Shown here: in pieces, positions 4,249 through 41,773 of the stretch | Position numbering within the stretch: the stretch's first letter is position 1 | How the letters are laid out: every line of letters starts with the position of its first letter | Source: a phage | Sequence record: PZ445526.1 | Direction: 5' to 3' (one strand) | Length of the DNA stretch: 64,000 bases | Notes under the pieces: model-generated | Seen by the model: the letters and a program-made list of their open reading frames with translations, nothing else | Databases searched by the model: none | What the model was told of the DNA's origin: nothing | Position numbers and translations under genes: made by a program

Positions 4249-5264
4249 TGTGTTGCCTCTACATATAACTGATTTGCATATTGAATAAGTGCTTCGCGAT
4301 CAGAATCAGTGATGTCTGGAATTGCATTAATGTATTCTTCCATCAATGTCTGAAGAGATTGAACTTCAACTTCTTCACTGTCATCTGACTCGACAGAGTT
4401 ATCAATCTTTGACACAACTCGTAACGAATGCACAACTTTTTCTAGTTCAGATTCGAACTTCGTCAGATTTTTGTCTACTTCAGTTACTATAACACGTACT
4501 GATAGATTTGTAAAATCTTTATAGTCAATTTTTCCTTTAAATGGATAATGAATTCTACGATGCCAGGTAGTATTGTTTGGAATAAATTCCATTCGTTCTG
4601 TTTCTGTATCAAACACCCAGAACCCACGAGGGTCATTCTCGTCACCTGCAGTTAGTGTCCATGGTGTCCCAATATATCTGACGTTTGCAGCCTCAGAGAT
4701 AGTATGGAAGTGACCAGACCACACTTCTTTATAAGTCTTAAGGAAATCAGGTTCAAGACCGTGAGATTTCATTCCTTTATAAAAATAAAATCCATTCAGT
4801 TCCCAGTGACCAACACAAAAAGAAGCAGATGAAGTTTTGATGTGCTCAAGAATTTCACCAGTATTTTCTTCACACATCCAAGGAATTAAATCAATTAAAC
4901 ATCCGTCAAAATCTACCGTAGTAGGCTTATCATATACTTTAACATTAGGATATTTAGCCAAAAGCTCAGTAGAGGCATTTGGATGCATTACATTTTTGTA
5001 GTGGAGATCGTGATTTCCTACAACAGTATGTAGGGTAATACCAGCATCATCAAGCATTTGAACTATTTCACGGGCGAACTCCATAGTTTTATGCGTGATT
5101 GCTTTTCGCACATCAAAAATATCACCGTATTGAATCCATACCGTAATTCCATTTTTCTTAGAATATTCTATCGCTTGCTTAATTCCATCAATTTGAATAC
5201 CGCGAATCCACTCATCATCAGCTTTAACGCCTAAATGCCAATCACCTAAATTTAAAATTTTCAT
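4245..5264 (-). CDS. 47: recombination nuclease subunit gp47 (Mre11-like phosphoesterase)
   Basis: 339 aa; MKILNLGDWHLG... calcineurin-like phosphoesterase motifs (GDxHxG, GDIFD, GNHD). Confidence 0.9.
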   Translation of the reverse strand: MKILNLGDWHLGVKADDEWIRGIQIDGIKQAIEYSKKNGITVWIQYGDIFDVRKAITHKTMEFAREIVQMLDDAGITLHTVVGNHDLHYKNVMHPNASTELLAKYPNVKVYDKPTTVDFDGCLIDLIPWMCEENTGEILEHIKTSSASFCVGHWELNGFYFYKGMKSHGLEPDFLKTYKEVWSGHFHTISEAANVRYIGTPWTLTAGDENDPRGFWVFDTETERMEFIPNNTTWHRRIHYPFKGKIDYKDFTNLSVRVIVTEVDKNLTKFESELEKVVHSLRVVSKIDNSVESDDSEEVEVQSLQTLMEEYINAIPDITDSDREALIQYANQLYVEATQ

Positions 5265-5401
5265 ATATCAAGAACCGTCATTGAAATGCAAAATAAAATT
5301 ATTGAAATAAATCCATCTAGAGTGCTAAAGAACCCAATCCAACATGCTCTAGTGAATAGATAAAATGCAAGAAAAAGTATCACATATCCAAGAAATATCA
5401 T
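5261..5401 (-). CDS. small hydrophobic protein (T4 47.1 position), 46 aa
   Basis: Hand-translated: MIFLGYVILFLAFYLFTRACWIGFFSTLDGFISIILFCISMTVLDI; stop overlaps gene 47 ATG (ATGA); below the ORF-track size cutoff. Confidence 0.4.
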   Translation of the reverse strand: MIFLGYVILFLAFYLFTRACWIGFFSTLDGFISIILFCISMTVLDI

Positions 5402-5424
5402 TATATCAAACTCCGTATAAAGCT

Positions 5425-5443
5425 AAAGGGCCGAAGCCCTTTA
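5425..5443 (-). terminator. GC hairpin GGGC-UUCG-GCCC at the a-gt stop codon
   Basis: Same aaagggccgaagcccttta motif as at 715-733, read directly. Confidence 0.35.
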
Positions 5444-6643
5444 TTTTGTAATAATGTCAAACTGTTCTTTAAAGCAGAAGCTTGAATCTTGGTGCTGATA
5501 CAAAAATTCATATGCTTTTTCTCGCTCACGGTCATAAAGAGCTCGGTCAGATGACAGTTCTTTAATACGCTCGAGTGTTGATTCCATATCATTTTCATCA
5601 AACCAAATGATACCGCTATCATGCGAGGTCAAAGGAGTATTATCAACACGGAATTTTAAATTTTCGCCAGTAGATTTCCAAAATACCGGAATTGTTCCAC
5701 ATGCACCAAGCTCGAGATGAGTATATTCTAAAGAACGTTGTAGATATTTTTTGTCCAACTTACTCAGCTGATAACCAAATCCGGATTTACTCATGCGTTC
5801 AAGCATTTCGCTATTTACATAACGGTCAAGAATTTGCGTTGGCAAATTAGGAGCAATTTTAATTTGGTCTACTTGATGAAGACGATAATACTCGTATGGA
5901 ATTCCTTTTTCTTTAATAGGAATGAACGCTGGAGAACGTTCCAGACCTTCCATAATAGTACTTAGTCCTGCAGGTTTAAGATGTTTTTCGTGAAAATCAA
6001 ACATCTGGTAAAAACCTTTCCATGTAGTCGTACGACCAATCCAACGGTTGATATTCATGTTAATTTCAGAAACATCTTTCCAGTAGGTTGATCGAACCTT
6101 CGCAATATCCATAGGAGGCTGAAAGTTGTATACGGTCGGTGCTTCTTCAATATCATCAAACAGAGAAACTGTTTCTGGATACCATTCTTTCATCAAAACT
6201 TTATTAAAGTCACCATTATCAGAATGGCTAAAAATAACATCAGCTCGACGAACAGTTTCTTCTAATCCCAAATTTCGACGCAAAGAAAGAGAAGAATGGT
6301 CATGTTGATAAACTACAACACGAACCGAAGGTTTAATGTTATCAATAATTTTTTTATAGTTATTAATAGTGTCTTCTTCAACTGAAGTAGCAGGAACTGA
6401 ATTGATAATTAGAATATCACAATCATTTACCAGCTTAAGTGTTTTATCGTATTCTTTTGCCAATAAAACCGGAATTGAAAATGATTTATAATCATGTGCA
6501 CAGTTACGAGTAAATGATTTATCTTTAGCATAAACCAAAGTTACTTCATGACCATTTTTAATAAACCAATCACGTTGCTCAAGAGAAAATTTAGTTACAC
6601 CGCAACCTTCAAGACCTCGAGCCATAAAAATACATACTTTCAT
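5441..6643 (-). CDS. a-gt: DNA alpha-glucosyltransferase
   Basis: 400 aa, MKVCIFMARGLEGCGVTKFSLEQRDWFIKNGHEVTLVYAKD...; matches T4 alpha-gt by recall. Confidence 0.9.
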   Translation of the reverse strand: MKVCIFMARGLEGCGVTKFSLEQRDWFIKNGHEVTLVYAKDKSFTRNCAHDYKSFSIPVLLAKEYDKTLKLVNDCDILIINSVPATSVEEDTINNYKKIIDNIKPSVRVVVYQHDHSSLSLRRNLGLEETVRRADVIFSHSDNGDFNKVLMKEWYPETVSLFDDIEEAPTVYNFQPPMDIAKVRSTYWKDVSEINMNINRWIGRTTTWKGFYQMFDFHEKHLKPAGLSTIMEGLERSPAFIPIKEKGIPYEYYRLHQVDQIKIAPNLPTQILDRYVNSEMLERMSKSGFGYQLSKLDKKYLQRSLEYTHLELGACGTIPVFWKSTGENLKFRVDNTPLTSHDSGIIWFDENDMESTLERIKELSSDRALYDREREKAYEFLYQHQDSSFCFKEQFDIITK

Positions 6644-32147: not shown

Positions 32148-32621
32148 TTATTTGAACGATTTAACGTACTGAATAGAACCTTTACTATTCACAAAGGCAA
32201 TTTTACCATTTTTGTTATACATGGTAGCAGTACGTTGATAACCGTAAGTTTGTTTACCAGATTGATAACCAACTAATGCGAAATTATCTTCACCCATTTT
32301 ATTCTGCTTAGCACGAATGCGTTCATGACCATGTGCCATAAGAACCTTAGCATCACCAGTTGCAATGGATCGACGAGTTTTTTCATCTTCAACTGTATTA
32401 ACAAAGTCGTCAAATGAATCAAATTTAGCATGAGATTTATTATACAGTTTTCCATCTACTGCATAATTATATCCTTGTACATCCATCTCAACTTCTGTAC
32501 CATCATCCAATACAGCAGTGATTTTTTGACCTTTTTTAAATTTCAAAAGATCAGTAAAAGATTCAGCAATAATTTGAGAATTAATAGCTGCTTCAGTAAT
32601 AAATTCTTGATATGTTTTCAT
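32148..32621 (-). CDS. internal-protein-like virion protein with capsid-targeting leader (ipII position)
   Basis: 157 aa; N-terminus MKTYQEFITEA matches the T4 IP/Alt leader; own early promoter. Confidence 0.6.
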   Translation of the reverse strand: MKTYQEFITEAAINSQIIAESFTDLLKFKKGQKITAVLDDGTEVEMDVQGYNYAVDGKLYNKSHAKFDSFDDFVNTVEDEKTRRSIATGDAKVLMAHGHERIRAKQNKMGEDNFALVGYQSGKQTYGYQRTATMYNKNGKIAFVNSKGSIQYVKSFK

Positions 32622-32703: not shown

Positions 32704-32739
32704 TGCTTTTATTTATAAGCGTCCCAAGTATAAGCTTTA

Positions 32740-33321
32740 TTAAGAATTACCACGGGCTGCATTAGCAACGGCGTAAGCGTACTGAATATTAGCGTCTTTA
32801 AACTTACCTTTAGAGGTATCTATTTCTGCCTTAAAGCCGCCTTTAGTCATAACATCGGCAAATTCTTTACGGAAAGCCATTGCATCAAGACCTTTCCATG
32901 ATGATTTATGCTTGGCAAATTCAAGACCGGCAAAGTTAACAGCCTTAGCTAATTTATTATCAATAACCCATTTACCGGCTTTAGGCACAAACTTCGGACC
33001 TTTCTGTTTAGAGAACAGTTTTAAATTCCAGCGGCGAAGGTCTGCATCAGCTTTAACAAATTCTGAGTCTAAGTTACTAGCAACAACATCTTCAATATGA
33101 GCAAATTTAAGTCCGTCAACTTCAATATTTAAATCGGTACGCCAGCGAAGTCCTTCCCAAGCGAAGGCTTTAAAGTCGGAAGCCTTTGTAGCTAAGTACC
33201 GTTCAATAGGAGCTGTTTTAGGGTCAAAGCCGTTTCCCGATCGGTAGGTCCACTCATCTTTATTAATGCCTTTGGCCTTTACTACAGAAGCTTCAGCAAT
33301 AAATTCTTGATAGGTTTTCAT
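32740..33321 (-). CDS. ipIII: internal protein III
   Basis: 193 aa, MKTYQEFIAEASVVKAKGINKDEWTYRSGNGFDPK...; matches T4 IPIII by recall. Confidence 0.85.
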   Translation of the reverse strand: MKTYQEFIAEASVVKAKGINKDEWTYRSGNGFDPKTAPIERYLATKASDFKAFAWEGLRWRTDLNIEVDGLKFAHIEDVVASNLDSEFVKADADLRRWNLKLFSKQKGPKFVPKAGKWVIDNKLAKAVNFAGLEFAKHKSSWKGLDAMAFRKEFADVMTKGGFKAEIDTSKGKFKDANIQYAYAVANAARGNS

Positions 33322-35226: not shown

Positions 35227-35600
35227 CGTGATTCCTTAACAAATTTCATAATTTCATTAAATTCATACTCAGCAAGTTTAAGCTGGTGTTCCTTTTTAAT
35301 CTTTTTGCATTGCACTTTCCAATCACGCACGCGTTTACGATAGTGTCTTTCTTGATACCAGTATCCTATCCAATTTACGGGTACTAATAAAAATGGAACT
35401 ACCAATGGAAGAGTTAGCATTAACATAATTATTACGCCAGATTCAATATCAGTCATAACATCTAAAACACCTCCAATAATCAATAGAATTACAAATGATA
35501 TGAGTATCACAGGACCTATTAATACGTCAGTAGGAATTAGCTGGCGCTTTAATTCATACTTCAAAGGTTTACTTGGAAGGTATAGTGATGGCTTTGACAT
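35208..35600 (-). CDS. membrane protein
   Basis: 130 aa from ATG (MSKPSLYLPSKP...); VLIGPVILISFVILLIIGGVL, IIMLMLTLPLVVPFLLV. Confidence 0.5.
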   Translation of the reverse strand: MSKPSLYLPSKPLKYELKRQLIPTDVLIGPVILISFVILLIIGGVLDVMTDIESGVIIMLMLTLPLVVPFLLVPVNWIGYWYQERHYRKRVRDWKVQCKKIKKEHQLKLAEYEFNEIMKFVKESRCKSQN

Positions 35601-36180
35601 ATTCTCTACATTCCTTAACAAATTTTTCTAGTAATAAATCACTTTCAAAATTAGGATTTTCCACTAATTTATCAAAAAGATCATCAACAATATTCAAGAT
35701 ATTTCTTTTACTAAGAATACGTTTATTTTCATGCTTCGTTTCAGAATCAACTATAAGAGTAAAGAAATATTTCTTTCCCTGAAATTTTACTGTAGTATCA
35801 ATATAGAATAAATTTGACTTTTGTAAGTTACGTTTAAACCATGCGTCACTTAAACTATAAACACCGAGATAATCAAAATCGTCGTTTAAATAACATACTG
35901 TCCATTCAGGAGAAATGAAATCAGTAAATTCAACATCAAAATCACACGTCAATGAATGAATTGATTCAATACTGTTAATAAGTATTCCAGGACGTATTAA
36001 AGACTTTTTACCTCTAGAAAATCTTCCAGAAAGACTTTCATCAGTTTCATATGAAGAACCCCAATAATAATTACGTCCTTCTGCCATACGTTTAAGAGCA
36101 TTTAATAATTGGTCTGGAACATCAACTTGTCTTTGGAATTCTTCAAACATTGAATTGAAATCAATTTGCATTCTTCTCAT
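35569..36180 (-). CDS. hypothetical protein
   Basis: 203 aa ORF. Confidence 0.45.
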   Translation of the reverse strand: MRRMQIDFNSMFEEFQRQVDVPDQLLNALKRMAEGRNYYWGSSYETDESLSGRFSRGKKSLIRPGILINSIESIHSLTCDFDVEFTDFISPEWTVCYLNDDFDYLGVYSLSDAWFKRNLQKSNLFYIDTTVKFQGKKYFFTLIVDSETKHENKRILSKRNILNIVDDLFDKLVENPNFESDLLLEKFVKECREYVKAITIPSK

Positions 36181-36221: not shown

Positions 36222-36815
36222 TTATTTCAGAGAATTAATGTATTCCTGAACATCGGCAGAGGTAGTTTCAACCCCAGAAATATTACCATTAAAGGTTTCA
36301 ACTCGAGCGAGAGTGTCTTCAATATCAACCTTAGTCAGTGCTGCAATTTCAACTACATCATCGGCAGTACTAATTCCAAGTGCATTCGCTGCTCGAGTTT
36401 CACGGATATATTCCAATTTAACTGCAAGTTCTTGGCGAGCATCATCCAATTCAACTACTTTCTTGGCGATTTCAATTCGCATTTCAGCATACCCATCAGC
36501 TTTAGTAGTTAACTGTTCAGCTGTTCGACGATATAGCAAGCCGAGTTTAGCATGCATTGTTACATCTTGACCTTCAGAAAGAAGCTTGCGAATTTCACGC
36601 TCTTTTGATTCGGCCTGTCGATTCTTTTCGACAATAAGTTCACGAATACGTTTTTCTTCATTAATAGATTTAACAGAAGCAGTTTTTAGGTCTTTAATTT
36701 TATCAAGCAGTTTTGCTGCTGCGGCAGTATACTGTTCTTCAACAGATAGATTTTTAGCCATAGCAGAACCAAGTTTAGTGCGAATAAACTCAACAATTTT
36801 CTTCAGTGTGTTCAT
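36222..36815 (-). CDS. coiled-coil protein (PspA-like?)
   Basis: 197 aa, highly helical with heptad-like repeats; fold assignment speculative. Confidence 0.45.
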
Positions 36816-37103: not shown

Positions 37104-37367
37104 TTATTTCATATTATTGAAATATTCTTCTGCAATTTCGTCGTTATCATGGTAAACTTTAGAAGACAGTTTAACATAACCTTCAGCAGTGAACATGTTA
37201 ATCACAACCTTTACAGTATACCACTGACCATCTTCATTACCCATTACTGCATAGGTTTCAAACATCGGATGGTCAGGACCGATAACTTTAATATCATTCA
37301 CTGTACGACCAAAATCTTCTGAAACACATTTCATAAAGAAGTTGAACAGTTCGCCGTAATTATCCAT
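37104..37367 (-). CDS. hypothetical protein
   Basis: 87 aa from ATG (MDNYGELFNFF...); GGAGAATAAAATG RBS; track start is TTG. Confidence 0.45.
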   Translation of the reverse strand: MDNYGELFNFFMKCVSEDFGRTVNDIKVIGPDHPMFETYAVMGNEDGQWYTVKVVINMFTAEGYVKLSSKVYHDNDEIAEEYFNNMK

Positions 37368-37410
37368 TTTATTCTCCAAGTTGTTTTCTGTATCAGTAGT
37401 TGATATTGAT

Positions 37411-37440
37411 ATAGTACCATGGAAGAACAGGGATGTAAAC
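37411..37440 (-). promoter_or_regulatory. T4 early promoter cassette
   Basis: Minus strand GTTTACATCCCTGTTCTTCCATGGTACTATATCAATATCAAC. Confidence 0.55.
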
Positions 37441-37569: not shown

Positions 37570-37598
37570 TGCCAAAAAGCCCTATCATTTAGATAGGG
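37570..37598 (-). terminator. rho-independent terminator
   Basis: CCCUAUC-UAAAU-GAUAGGG hairpin followed by CUUUUUGG, directly after the 37607 stop. Confidence 0.55.
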
Positions 37599-37606
37599 AT
37601 TTAAAA

Positions 37607-38173
37607 TTATTTGCTTAGTTTAGTTATTATAGCTTCTGCGGCAGCTTTTAGCTTAGATGCGGTGTTAATACGATTTTTAATTTCAGTATACGCATCGCCA
37701 AGAACATCAAGGCTATCAGAATAAACACTTACACTATTGCGTTCGCTATTTGAAATAGAACCTTTAGTTTTACGATCAAAATCGGTGTATACGTCTTGAA
37801 GATCGCGTGCTGCCTTCTTTGCATCATCCAATGCATCAAGAGCTTTATTCAAAGCATTAACGTATTTTTTAGTATCGAACATATTCTTAGAAATTTTAAC
37901 AGGCGCACGTTCAGGAGTAGCTAAGGCAGATTTAGGAAGAACCTGTTTGCCAGATGCCAGTTTCTTAGAAATTTTGAAAAACGCTTTATTGAAATTATTT
38001 TCTTGACTCATCGTAAAAGAACTATTATCAATGTTATACATTTCAATAGCTTTAGCTTTCCACTTAAGAAAATCGCCACGGTCTTTTGGGTCCAAGTGGA
38101 AGAATACTTTAGTAAGATCTGCTTCAGATGGTAATTTTGCTGCTTCGGTTAAAAATTCGGCATAGGTTTTCAT
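37607..38173 (-). CDS. internal-protein-like virion protein with capsid-targeting leader
   Basis: 188 aa; N-terminus MKTYAEFLTEAAKL resembles the T4 IP leader. Confidence 0.5.
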   Translation of the reverse strand: MKTYAEFLTEAAKLPSEADLTKVFFHLDPKDRGDFLKWKAKAIEMYNIDNSSFTMSQENNFNKAFFKISKKLASGKQVLPKSALATPERAPVKISKNMFDTKKYVNALNKALDALDDAKKAARDLQDVYTDFDRKTKGSISNSERNSVSVYSDSLDVLGDAYTEIKNRINTASKLKAAAEAIITKLSK

Positions 38174-38247
38174 TTAAAATCCTTGAAATAATTTATTGGT
38201 TATTAATTATTTATTATCCGTAACAGCATTCTCTGAGTGATTCAAAC

Positions 38248-38277
38248 TAAAAAGCCCCAACCTTTCGGTCAGGGCTA
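38248..38277 (-). terminator. rho-independent terminator closing the tRNA/stable-RNA unit
   Basis: 10-bp stem (AGCCCUGACC/GGUUGGGGCU with two G-U pairs), GAAA tetraloop, then UUUUU. Confidence 0.65.
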
Positions 38278-38587
38278 AGCCTTGCGGCAACCTTGTCGGG
38301 GTTCCACCTGCTAAGGCAAGTGTTTGTACGAAACGCCGGGACTTGAACCCGGTTATTAAGTAGTTGACGCTACTCAATATTTTTAAAAGGCCATATCTCG
38401 ACCATATCCGAACGTTCCGTCAAAAACGCTACTCGGCTTACGGCAAAGATATTTCCTCGAATCGATAATTCGGTGCGCCGTTTCTGCTGTGATGTAAGGG
38501 GATATTAACAAATCGTAAAGATTTATTAAGACCAGTCCTTACTCAGGGAACATCAGTCCGACGACTTACCGGTAGCGACCCGGTTTC
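38278..38587 (-). ncRNA. candidate structured stable RNA(s), possibly counterparts of T4 species 1/2 RNAs
   Basis: No ORF of 60 aa or more on either strand; tRNA-like T-arm CCGGGUUCAAGUCCCGG at 38336-38352 with possible acceptor pairing CGGAACG/CGUUUCG; adjacent to tRNA cluster and followed by strong terminator. Confidence 0.4.
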
Positions 38588-38938
38588 TTAATATTCTTTT
38601 AAAGCATCAATCTGTTCACGGCGTTTACGCCATAAATCAATTGCTTCATACGCGGATTCAGCATTTCGAATTGGTCGGCATTTATGTAAAGACTTGTGAT
38701 TTTGATATTTTGTAGATAATGGAATTTTATCTAAAAGGTCTTTACGTTCAAAGTATTCGTAACCATCTAAACCAAATGAACGATTTTTGAGAAATTGCCA
38801 ATGACCATATTCGTTTTGGATGTAAATATAATCCGCGTGTTGATAAAGCAAATTAGTTTCACGAGATGAGATATGGTTTTCATATTCATTGAAGTAAAAT
38901 GTTAAATCATGAACTACTAAATAAACATTACCTTTCAT
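38588..38938 (-). CDS. hypothetical protein
   Basis: 116 aa ORF between the stable-RNA region and tRNA-Arg. Confidence 0.45.
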   Translation of the reverse strand: MKGNVYLVVHDLTFYFNEYENHISSRETNLLYQHADYIYIQNEYGHWQFLKNRSFGLDGYEYFERKDLLDKIPLSTKYQNHKSLHKCRPIRNAESAYEAIDLWRKRREQIDALKEY

Positions 38939-38956: not shown

Positions 38957-39032
38957 TGGTCGAGGCAGTAGGGATCGAACCTACGACCCAGGACTTAGAA
39001 GGTCCTTGCTCTTCCTTCTGAGCTATGCCTCG
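38957..39032 (-). tRNA. tRNA-Arg (anticodon UCU)
   Basis: Hand-folded cloverleaf: acceptor CGAGGCA/UGCCUCG, anticodon loop CUUCUAA, T-loop GGUUCGAUCC, encoded CCA. Confidence 0.8.
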
Positions 39033-39036
39033 GATT

Positions 39037-39111
39037 TGGCGGACGTGATAGGATTCGAACCTATAACCAATCGCTTAACAGGCGATCGCTCTGCCATTGA
39101 GCTACACATCC
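39037..39111 (-). tRNA. tRNA-Asn (anticodon GUU)
   Basis: Acceptor GGAUGUG/CACGUCC, anticodon stem AUCGC/GCGAU with loop CUGUUAA, T-loop GGUUCGAAUCC, encoded CCA. Confidence 0.75.
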
Positions 39112-39115
39112 AAAT

Positions 39116-39202
39116 TGGTGGGGAGTGATGGAGTCGAACCACCCGAGTCGCAATGACAATGGATTTACAGTCCACACCGCTACCTCTACGGGATAACTCC
39201 CC
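39116..39202 (-). tRNA. tRNA-Tyr (anticodon GUA), long variable arm
   Basis: Acceptor GGGGAGU/ACUCCCC, anticodon loop CUGUAAA, long extra arm, T-loop GGUUCGACUCC, encoded CCA. Confidence 0.7.
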
Positions 39203-39212
39203 CAAATTAATT

Positions 39213-39287
39213 TGGTGGCCCTGGGTGGAATTGAACCACCATCTGGCGATTATGAGTCGCTTGCTTGAACCTTCCAGCTACAGGGCC
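39213..39287 (-). tRNA. tRNA with CAU anticodon (T4 tRNA-Ile counterpart, or Met)
   Basis: Acceptor GGCCCUG/CAGGGCC, anticodon loop CUCAUAA, T-loop GGUUCAAUUCC, encoded CCA; same position as T4 tRNA-Ile. Confidence 0.7.
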
Positions 39288-39288
39288 T

Positions 39289-39364
39289 TGGTGCTGATTG
39301 ACGGAATCGAACCGCCGACCTTCTCATTACAAGTGAGTTGCTCTACCTACTGAGCTAAATCAGC
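39289..39364 (-). tRNA. tRNA-Thr (anticodon UGU)
   Basis: Acceptor GCUGAUU/AAUCAGC, anticodon loop CUUGUAA, T-loop GGUUCGAUUCC, encoded CCA. Confidence 0.75.
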
Positions 39365-39369
39365 AAAAC

Positions 39370-39459
39370 TGGCGGAGGCGATAGGATTTGAACCTATGAG
39401 TCGCCGGAGCGACTGCCGGTTTTCAAGACCGGTGCATTAAACCACTCTGCCACGCCTCC
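39370..39459 (-). tRNA. tRNA-Ser (anticodon UGA), long variable arm
   Basis: Acceptor GGAGGCG/CGCCUCC, anticodon stem CCGGU/ACCGG with loop CUUGAAA, long extra arm, encoded CCA. Confidence 0.75.
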
Positions 39460-39461
39460 AG

Positions 39462-39535
39462 TCTCCGTGGCAGGATTTGAACCTACGACATTCTGCTCCC
39501 AAAGCAGACGCTCTACCAAACTGAGCTACACGGAG
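39462..39535 (-). tRNA. tRNA-Pro (anticodon UGG), CCA not encoded
   Basis: Acceptor CUCCGUG/CACGGAG, anticodon stem UCUGC/GCAGA with loop UUUGGGA; 3' end reads ...GAGACUGG. Confidence 0.75.
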
Positions 39536-39545
39536 TAAATTAAAT

Positions 39546-39619
<74 letters not shown>

Positions 39620-39624
39620 AAATT

Positions 39625-39711
39625 TGGTGCGAGAAGTGGGACTCGAACCCACAAGGAAATCATTCCGCAGCATTTTAAGTGCTGTGCCTTTACCAATTTG
39701 ACCATTCTCGC
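39625..39711 (-). tRNA. tRNA-Leu (anticodon UAA), long variable arm
   Basis: Acceptor GCGAGAA/UUCUCGC, anticodon stem CAGCA/UGCUG with loop CUUAAAA, long extra arm, encoded CCA. Confidence 0.75.
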
Positions 39712-39712
39712 G

Positions 39713-39785
39713 CTGGGAATAAAGGACTCGAACCTTTGCATCCTGGAATCAAAATCCAGTGCCTTACCAACTTGGCTAATTCCCA
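39713..39785 (-). tRNA. tRNA-Gln (anticodon UUG), CCA not encoded
   Basis: Acceptor UGGGAAU/AUUCCCA, anticodon stem CUGGA/UCCAG with loop UUUUGAU, T-loop GGUUCGAGUCC. Confidence 0.75.
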
Positions 39786-41131: not shown

Positions 41132-41440
41132 CTATTTTATTCCGCGTGATGCAATTGTGTTCTGTCGTTTAACACCAGTTTGTTTAAAGTCATGATTGTC
41201 GATTTGATCGGTACGAGCAACTCCGAATGATGATTTGATCTTAGCTTTAGATCCTTTAGTTATAGAAATAAACATCTCAGAAGCCCCTTTCTTAAAGTCC
41301 GAGGCGATTACTTCAACGCCGTTCTTAGCAAGTGACTTCAGAATTGCCTCCGCGTATTCATCGTCAAGACTTGCCTGAGTATTAATAACGAATGTCTTTG
41401 GCGCAGCCGCTTCATTGATAAATTCTTTAAATGTTTTCAT
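41132..41440 (-). CDS. internal-protein-like virion protein with capsid-targeting leader
   Basis: 102 aa: MKTFKEFINEAAAPKTFVINTQ...; own early promoter. Confidence 0.55.
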   Translation of the reverse strand: MKTFKEFINEAAAPKTFVINTQASLDDEYAEAILKSLAKNGVEVIASDFKKGASEMFISITKGSKAKIKSSFGVARTDQIDNHDFKQTGVKRQNTIASRGIK

Positions 41441-41500: not shown

Positions 41501-41773
41501 TCATTTTAAATAAATTGCGTATTTTTTATAACCCGCTGACTCATGACGAAGACCCTTATCATTAGCAAAACGCTCAATGTTGTTAATTTGATTCTGATCA
41601 AGTTCAGAGATGTCAAACACGAAAAAGTTACGTTTGTTACCAACTGTTATATAGTCAGTTAAATCAATATCATATAGGTAATTGATGTCAGCAATCAAAG
41701 TCTTGACAGCTTTGCTAATTTTTACTTTTTCGTTAAAAGCAGCTTCAGCAATAAATTCTTGATACGTTTTCAT
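41501..41773 (-). CDS. internal-protein-like virion protein with capsid-targeting leader
   Basis: 90 aa from ATG: MKTYQEFIAEAAFNEKVKISKAVKT...; identical leader to IPIII. Confidence 0.55.
   Translation of the reverse strand: MKTYQEFIAEAAFNEKVKISKAVKTLIADINYLYDIDLTDYITVGNKRNFFVFDISELDQNQINNIERFANDKGLRHESAGYKKYAIYLK

Follow-up and report, generated by a model that had tools for sequence, protein, structure and literature searches.

A gene beside the stable RNAs of a T4-like phage, predicted to encode a capsid-targeted internal protein, points to a third site for such genes

We analysed a stretch of 64,000 nucleotides of phage DNA (PZ445526.1; here called the window), which is that of a T4-like phage of the genus Tequatrovirus. 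Next to its tRNA and stable-RNA region lies a gene for a 188-aa protein that starts with a variant of the capsid-targeting leader of T4 internal proteins. Capsid-targeted internal proteins are a known kind; the literature puts ip genes at two loci (PMC12373910), and a third ip locus is undescribed. All sequence-level predictions for an extra capsid-targeted protein at this third site were borne out, which supports the assignment. Taking the whole reading together, we consider it probable that the 188-aa product is a new T4-type internal protein, which would be packaged by its leader, injected and directed against host defence.

The gene and its leader

The gene occupies positions 37607-38173 on the minus strand. 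It starts with ATG, there are zero in-frame codons between the preceding stop and this ATG, and the N-terminus of the encoded protein reads MKTYAEFLTEAAKLP. Together with a promoter-like box and a terminator the gene forms a small cassette. Its upstream boundary is the hairpin at 38253..38276, which is also the recombination repeat described below, and its downstream boundary is the promoter of the next gene, e.8 (37104-37379, minus strand). In the direction of transcription, the elements are:

38253..38276, minus strand: terminator hairpin closing the tRNA/stable-RNA unit, AGCCCTGACCGAAAGGTTGGGGCT then TTTTT
38208..38215, minus strand: late-promoter-like box AATAAATA, matching 7/8 positions of T4 TATAAATA, 35 nt 5' of the ATG
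38180..38184, minus strand: Shine-Dalgarno sequence AAGGA, read from the sequence, 8 nt 5' of the ATG
38144..38173, minus strand: leader codons 1-10, MKTYAEFLTE, with the predicted prohead-protease site L-T-E↓A (pattern scan and family conservation)
37610..38143, minus strand: predicted mature part, 178 aa (composition, AlphaFold2 and domain conservation)
37607..37609, minus strand: stop codon TAA, read from the sequence
37570..37598, minus strand: intrinsic terminator of the cassette, stem CCCTATC-TAAAT-GATAGGG at 37598-37580, then CTTTTTGG
37411..37439, minus strand: early sigma-70-type promoter of e.8, TTTACA-17-TACTAT with TG, conserved with T4

The original prediction of an ORF with a variant capsid-targeting leader, followed by a clean terminator at 37570-37598, was confirmed: the ORF and its ATG are as proposed, and both the hairpin stem and the tail of the terminator are present. 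The leader MKTYAEFLTE is 7/10 identical to MKTYQEFIAE of the window's IpIII and ipI-locus genes, the variant residues being A5, L8 and T9. In T4, the gp21 prohead protease cleaves at (L/I)-x-E motifs, and L8-T9-E10↓A11 is the sole [LI]-x-E in the 188-aa protein. A six-frame scan of the 64 kb with the leader pattern M-[KR]-[ST]-[YF]-x-[ED]-[FYL]-[ILVM]-x-E gave 5 matches, where about 5e-4 would be expected by chance (a rough estimate from amino-acid frequencies). All five coincide with the starting Met of minus-strand ORFs of 90-193 aa, namely the target, 41501-41773 and 41132-41440 at the ipI locus, and 32740-33321 and 32148-32621 at the ipIII/ipII locus. Differences among five orthologues of the target are mostly synonymous and in third positions (e.g. 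13 synonymous versus 3 non-synonymous codons), hence the ORF is a real coding gene under purifying selection. Leader scan and substitution bias together rule out a chance ORF at 37607-38173.

Escherichia phages ph0021 and Pu-Krd-SF3 encode proteins with 100% identity to the 188-aa protein. One public source calls a 187-aa member of the cluster 'isopenicillin N synthase-like dioxygenase', a label that finds no support in the sequence or the structural model and looks like a spurious annotation.

Genomic location

According to the T4 annotation, the order on this strand is 57A, 57B, ipI, tRNA.4-.2, the tRNAs, rnaD, rnaC and e.8, continuing to e, ipIII and ipII. The window carries ten tRNAs at 38957-39785, followed by a 116-aa ORF, the stable-RNA homologues, the hairpin, the 188-aa gene and e.8. 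The counterpart hairpin of T4 is situated approximately 50 nt 3' of the annotated rnaC, and the flank on the e.8 side aligns base-for-base with T4. Placement of the ORF in the classical ipI locus was considered and rejected, as the T4 annotation has ipI across the tRNA cluster. The gene had also been described as lying far from the classical loci. It does occupy a distinct third site, since the ten tRNA genes, the stable RNAs and several other genes separate it from both and it has its own promoter-like element and terminator; the distance, however, is a relative matter, ipI lying about 3 kb upstream of the gene and ipIII about 4.3 kb downstream of it, all on one strand. T2, T4, T6 and PST carry no cassette at the third site, and its being empty in T2, T4 and T6 explains why it was overlooked; the PST annotation names internal proteins at the two classical loci only.

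Several features of the neighbourhood were recorded along the way. The 116-aa ORF (38588-38938, minus strand), between tRNA-Arg and the stable RNAs, resembles RB69ORF150c and belongs to PHROG 3355, of unknown function; it is present in T2 and RB69 and absent from T4, T6 and PST, which have segB or nothing thereabouts. The rnaD/rnaC homologues at 38249-38590 (minus strand) are highly conserved in comparison with T4 and phiD1. Searched at the gathering threshold, Rfam matched the ten tRNAs alone, and none of its families corresponded to the stable RNAs.

The classical loci of the window were inspected likewise. At the ipI locus there are two leader-bearing genes, both with T4-type early promoters upstream. 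Within the pair 41132-41440/41501-41773, the 102-aa gene (MKTFKEFINEA) matches T2 'internal head protein 7' in length and position, and in the 90-aa gene (MKTYQEFIAEA) the leader Met is preceded by 25 in-frame codons. The ipII/ipIII locus (32148-32621 and 32740-33321, minus strand) encodes IpIII (193 aa) and a 157-aa leader-bearing protein whose size and position match 'IpIV' of PST and not T4 IpII (100 aa). A perfect late promoter TATAAATA is found at 32717 in this locus.

Conservation of the leader in a divergent protein family

A HMMER scan of 1.84 billion representative sequences with the mature part recovered its own cluster, fragments and one relative of 29% identity. By tblastn and profile searches from this relative, further members were found in Mosigvirus, Karamvirus and Dhakavirus and in T4-like phages of Klebsiella, Erwinia and Yersinia. 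In an alignment of 12 family sequences E10 is invariant and [FY]4-x-[EQD]-[FI]-[LIT]-x-E is kept, while the body falls to 16-27% identity. Relatives in Mosigvirus, Karamvirus and other T4-like genera that share 22-31% identity with the target over the rest of the protein occupy the same site and retain the leader. The leaders themselves vary (MITFNEFLNE, MLNFKQFIAE, MRFKEFLTE, MLKFKDILTE) and retain the aromatic residue 4, the hydrophobic pair 7-8 and Glu10. That the leader is kept across genera while the body and the leader DNA diverge requires selection to act on the leader itself. Among the sequence evidence for a functional leader, we regard this conservation amid divergence as the strongest.

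The family bodies consist of a helical N-domain that is conserved, a Pro/Ala/Lys-rich linker whose length varies and a C-terminal helical domain with at least two versions. The family genes of Mosigvirus JQD51 and Karamvirus KMB19 directly follow the stable-RNA terminator, and each has its own terminator; at these two loci a perfect TATAAATA precedes the ATG by 43 nt (JQD51) and 33 nt (KMB19).

For the target, the predicted mature protein has 178 aa, a mass of 19.8 kDa, a pI of 9.5 and 32 Lys+Arg; the IpIII of the window has a pI of 9.65. Structure prediction of the mature part, proposed earlier as a check, was carried out with AlphaFold2 and the family alignment. It gave a helical two-domain model (pLDDT 76, pTM 0.46) with helices at about 17-73, a disordered P/K-rich linker at 77-95 and a long helical hairpin at 102-187. 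Comparison of the target with the window's IpIII, its IpIV-like protein and phiD1 g140 by hhalign and BLASTP aligned only residues 1 to about 25. Searches of Pfam, PHROGs, PADLOC and PDB sequences with the protein and the family alignment yielded only PHROG 2280 ('unknown function') and a sub-threshold helical match to cytochrome b562. In these databases the mature protein had no recognisable fold relatives and no sequence or fold similarity to known anti-restriction proteins.

Cassette exchange at the third site

A three-way alignment of the window with T4 and phiD1 revealed the polymorphism of the site. T4 has an empty site, its hairpin running straight into TATCTAAGCC. In the window the cassette, i.e. 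box, gene and terminator, sits between the hairpin and CATCTAGACC. At the same position phiD1 carries a different cassette with a perfect TATAAATA and a 157-aa gene, g140, whose product begins MKSYTQFLNEAVLNE; its terminator is a near-copy of the upstream hairpin. The tail of the window's cassette terminator, GGGCTTTTTGG(C/T)ATCTAG, repeats the T4 junction that follows the upstream hairpin.

Two types of cassette gene are widespread at this site. The target gene, here type A, was detected by tblastn in 165 phage records at 95-100% identity, save one at 86%; RB14ORF136 is a member, and the gene is labelled hypothetical in all matches listed. Type B, the 157-aa gene with the leader MKSYTQFLNE↓A and a body unrelated to that of the target, occupies the same site in 512 records. 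In a BLASTP comparison of g140 with the target, the match is limited to 11 leader residues and the N-terminal domains are unrelated. The C-terminal helical domains of type B and of the Karamvirus members are related (BLASTP 6e-8), and type B aligned to the family profile with an hhalign E of 1e-4 (probability 58%). Cassette types A and B are therefore mosaics of shared modules.

Both types occur in tandem in G50, CrRp10, F26 and KarlGJung, in the order hairpin, B gene, hairpin copy, A gene and A terminator. Single and empty arrangements contain one hairpin copy, the tandem B-A phages two, and the arrangement of the window is the product that recombination between the two copies of a B-A phage would leave. 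The cassette is a single-gene module with repeated stem-loop/promoter flanks and indel junctions at the repeats, as in PeSL-type modules. Judging from these junctions, the third site is one that gains and loses leader-bearing cassettes through recombination at repeated terminator hairpins.

RB69 (AY303349) has a type A copy at 5095-5657 that is about 96% identical but frameshifted and annotated as ORF149c and ORF148c, so the gene is dispensable at least in this phage. RB69 is a Mosigvirus, and at this site other Mosigviruses have a diverged member of the family, which suggests either that the copy moved between genera recently and then decayed, or that the sequence contains an error.

Expression of the cassette

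The box AATAAATA is the sole copy on the minus strand between 30000 and 43000 and the only promoter-like element of the target. A T4-type early promoter was looked for upstream of the target gene and is absent; the four classical-locus ip genes of the window, by contrast, are preceded by T4-type early promoters (GTTTAC...TGATACTAT). A perfect TATAAATA stands at the corresponding position in front of the genes that JQD51, KMB19, phiD1 and G50 carry at this site. The target's own box is imperfect, which counts against late expression. In the proposed reading the target's own copy would be transcribed late, from its own small, terminator-insulated cassette.

Transposon insertions in the Bas37 orthologue

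Phage Bas37 (KarlGJung, MZ501089) has been screened by HIDEN-SEQ (10.1101/2025.11.20.689424). Its gene bas37_0243 (141028-141591) is a 96%-identical orthologue of the target. Only 1/48 TA sites of this gene was disrupted, with mean counts of 0.2, and it was classed as 'Essential'; its neighbours bas37_0242 (the e.8 orthologue) and bas37_0244 (type B) were hit at 23/23 and 29/34 TA sites, respectively, and are non-essential (10.1101/2025.11.20.689424). The authors of the screen do not mention bas37_0243 (10.1101/2025.11.20.689424).

Taken at face value, the dense insertions in both neighbours and the high identity of the orthologue would mean that the gene is truly essential, for instance because it neutralises a defence of E. 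coli K-12 or another phage-encoded activity. We regard this as rather improbable. The gene is missing from close relatives and frameshifted in RB69, and the screen's authors did not single it out. Moreover, hoc, inh, wac, segC and segE are dispensable genes in the T4 literature. In the same screen T4 hoc (8/100), inh (1/49) and wac (0/118) as well as segC and segE were scored 'Essential' (10.1101/2025.11.20.689424). Selection relied on a transposon-borne acrVIA1 against Cas13a targeting the late major-capsid transcript, and the promoter of the marker is not described (10.1101/2025.11.20.689424). Since the marker needs to be transcribed, insertions in late-only, terminator-insulated units are probably unrecoverable, and the 'Essential' call on bas37_0243 is probably an artefact of late-only transcription. 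If so, the screen indirectly supports a late-only, terminator-insulated unit, as with hoc, inh and wac. Loss of the gene from the laboratory stock was considered as another cause of the call; it is possible and unsupported, one TA site having been hit, as in true essentials.

It is a long shot that the screen is right after all and that, jointly, the gene is indispensable even on K-12, the tRNA-proximal late-promoter site is an ancestral ip locus conserved across Tevenvirinae genera and its two-domain family has a role other than blocking restriction of the GmrSD/McrBC type. Were bas37_0243 essential, it would be the first essential capsid-targeted cargo.

Two further observations concern the screen. 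The 'Essential' calls for hoc, inh, wac, segC and segE look like a systematic class of false positives, probably of late-only or poorly transcribed units, which takes in bas37_0243 as well. In addition, bas37_0239 and bas37_0240, the orthologues of e.5 (35569-36180) and e.6 (36222-36815), were strongly depleted in one comparison of K-12 with a clinical isolate (log2 fold change -3.6 and -6.5, q about 0). Both are conserved genes of unknown function located just downstream of the cassette, and they may serve counter-defence in particular hosts.

Packaging and function

From the sequence, the 188-aa protein is predicted to be packaged, cleaved and injected. Residues 1-10, MKTYAEFLTE, would steer the precursor into the scaffolding core of the prohead, and gp21 would remove the leader after Glu10. 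The basic mature protein of 19.8 kDa would then stay in the DNA-filled head and enter the host with the DNA. Literature searches on the leader peptide, on virion proteomes of type A carriers and on fHe-Yen9-01 proteomics returned nothing usable. The type B product g140 was scored as particle-associated by LC-MS/MS of Yersinia phage fD1 (phiD1) (PMC8309999). The fD1 preparation also held the non-structural proteins NudE, DenV, lysozyme, e.5 and e.6 (PMC8309999); it was thus not clean, and the score for g140 is weak evidence.

Alternatively, the leader might be left over from recombination among ip cassettes, in which case the protein would act in the infected cell without being packaged. Such copying is conceivable, as ip genes share 5' DNA that recombination could transfer, and the target's imperfect late promoter would agree with it. 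We consider this reading very improbable, because the leader motif and Glu10 are kept in homologues of other genera whose leader DNA and body have diverged, these homologues have perfect late promoters, and the product of the sister cassette was detected in fD1 virions.

As to what a packaged protein would do, the anti-defence role is proposed by analogy: the leader-bearing proteins tested so far, Ip1, Ip2, Ip3 and Bas37_0260, are defence inhibitors. Ip1 inhibits GmrSD of strain CT596 (PMC12373910; PMC9391042), Ip2 and Ip3 inhibit distinct GmrSD variants without cross-protection (PMC12373910), and Bas37_0260, from the ipI locus, inhibits McrBC (10.1101/2025.11.20.689424). In studies from 2022-2025 every tested internal protein blocks a specific type IV restriction enzyme (PMC12373910; PMC9391042; 10.1101/2025.11.20.689424). 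By the same analogy the injected target protein would most likely neutralise a first-line defence of the host, probably a variant of a type IV (modification-dependent) restriction enzyme, with the variable C-terminal hairpin as a candidate specificity module.

The conservation of the N-domain across genera is less usual for anti-defence proteins, which evolve fast, and is in keeping with a broader role. The protein could be packaged via its leader and serve a structural or physical purpose, as a basic core or DNA-associated protein that aids condensation, packaging or ejection. Its pI and its 32 Lys+Arg in 178 residues would suit this role, as would an N-domain conserved in several Tevenvirinae genera at a fixed site, unlike the variable bodies of classical internal proteins; in T4 heads, internal proteins contact the phosphates of the DNA through their lysines (PMC3012670). 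Nevertheless, this role appears unlikely to us. The absence of the gene from T2, T4, T6 and PST and its frameshift in RB69 indicate that it is not needed for any general function of the head, family members have swapped C-terminal domains, as expected of a target-specific module, and no leader-bearing protein tested has turned out to be anything other than a defence inhibitor.

A leader-packaged anti-defence protein remains our preferred reading, and its interest extends beyond the window. Internal proteins serve as the first-minute counter-defence of the phage, and the third ip site adds two widespread cassette types (165 and 512 records), one of them with cross-genus relatives. The cassettes at this site are candidates for new anti-defence activities and for the prediction of host range in therapeutic Tequatroviruses, and one carrier, Bas37/KarlGJung, is already genetically tractable. 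Apart from this, the analysis flags a class of likely systematic false 'essential' calls in a phage transposon screen.

Comparison with known systems

The classical capsid-targeted internal proteins of T4 (Mullaney & Black 1996) are the closest known system. They share with the target an N-terminal capsid-targeting sequence of ten residues that closes with (L/I)-x-E↓A, a small basic body without similarity to other internal proteins beyond the leader, and a location close to the tRNA cluster, on the same strand and in a plastic region, where presence and absence vary among close relatives. They differ in being encoded at ipI (57B-tRNA.4) or ipII/ipIII (denV-e), whereas the target lies between the tRNA/stable-RNA terminator and e.8. 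The target has a late or late-like promoter only, in contrast to the early promoters of the four classical-locus ip genes of the window, and unlike the classical proteins its body belongs to a two-domain family conserved in several Tevenvirinae genera.

The inhibitors of McrBC (Bas37_0260) and GmrSD (Ip2/Ip3) have the N-terminal leader and the phage group in common with the target. They show no similarity to its body, and their genes tolerate transposon insertions, which bas37_0243 does not. The phiD1/fD1 g140 cassette (RB32ORF133c, AR1 ar1_137) shares the insertion site of the target, a leader of the form MKS(Y)xQFLNE↓A and an arrangement with its own late promoter and terminator. Type B, however, has a perfect TATAAATA and is insertion-tolerant in Bas37, whereas the box of the target is imperfect and its orthologue intolerant.

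Modular shuffling has been described for T4-type genomes (PMC4122927), and the site in the window resembles it except for the late promoter. PeSL-type shuffling (Arbiol 2010; Comeau 2014) likewise involves single-gene cassettes bounded by repeated stem-loop/promoter elements, with indels exactly at the repeats. PeSLs combine an early promoter with a stem-loop; at the third site a terminator hairpin is joined to a late promoter.
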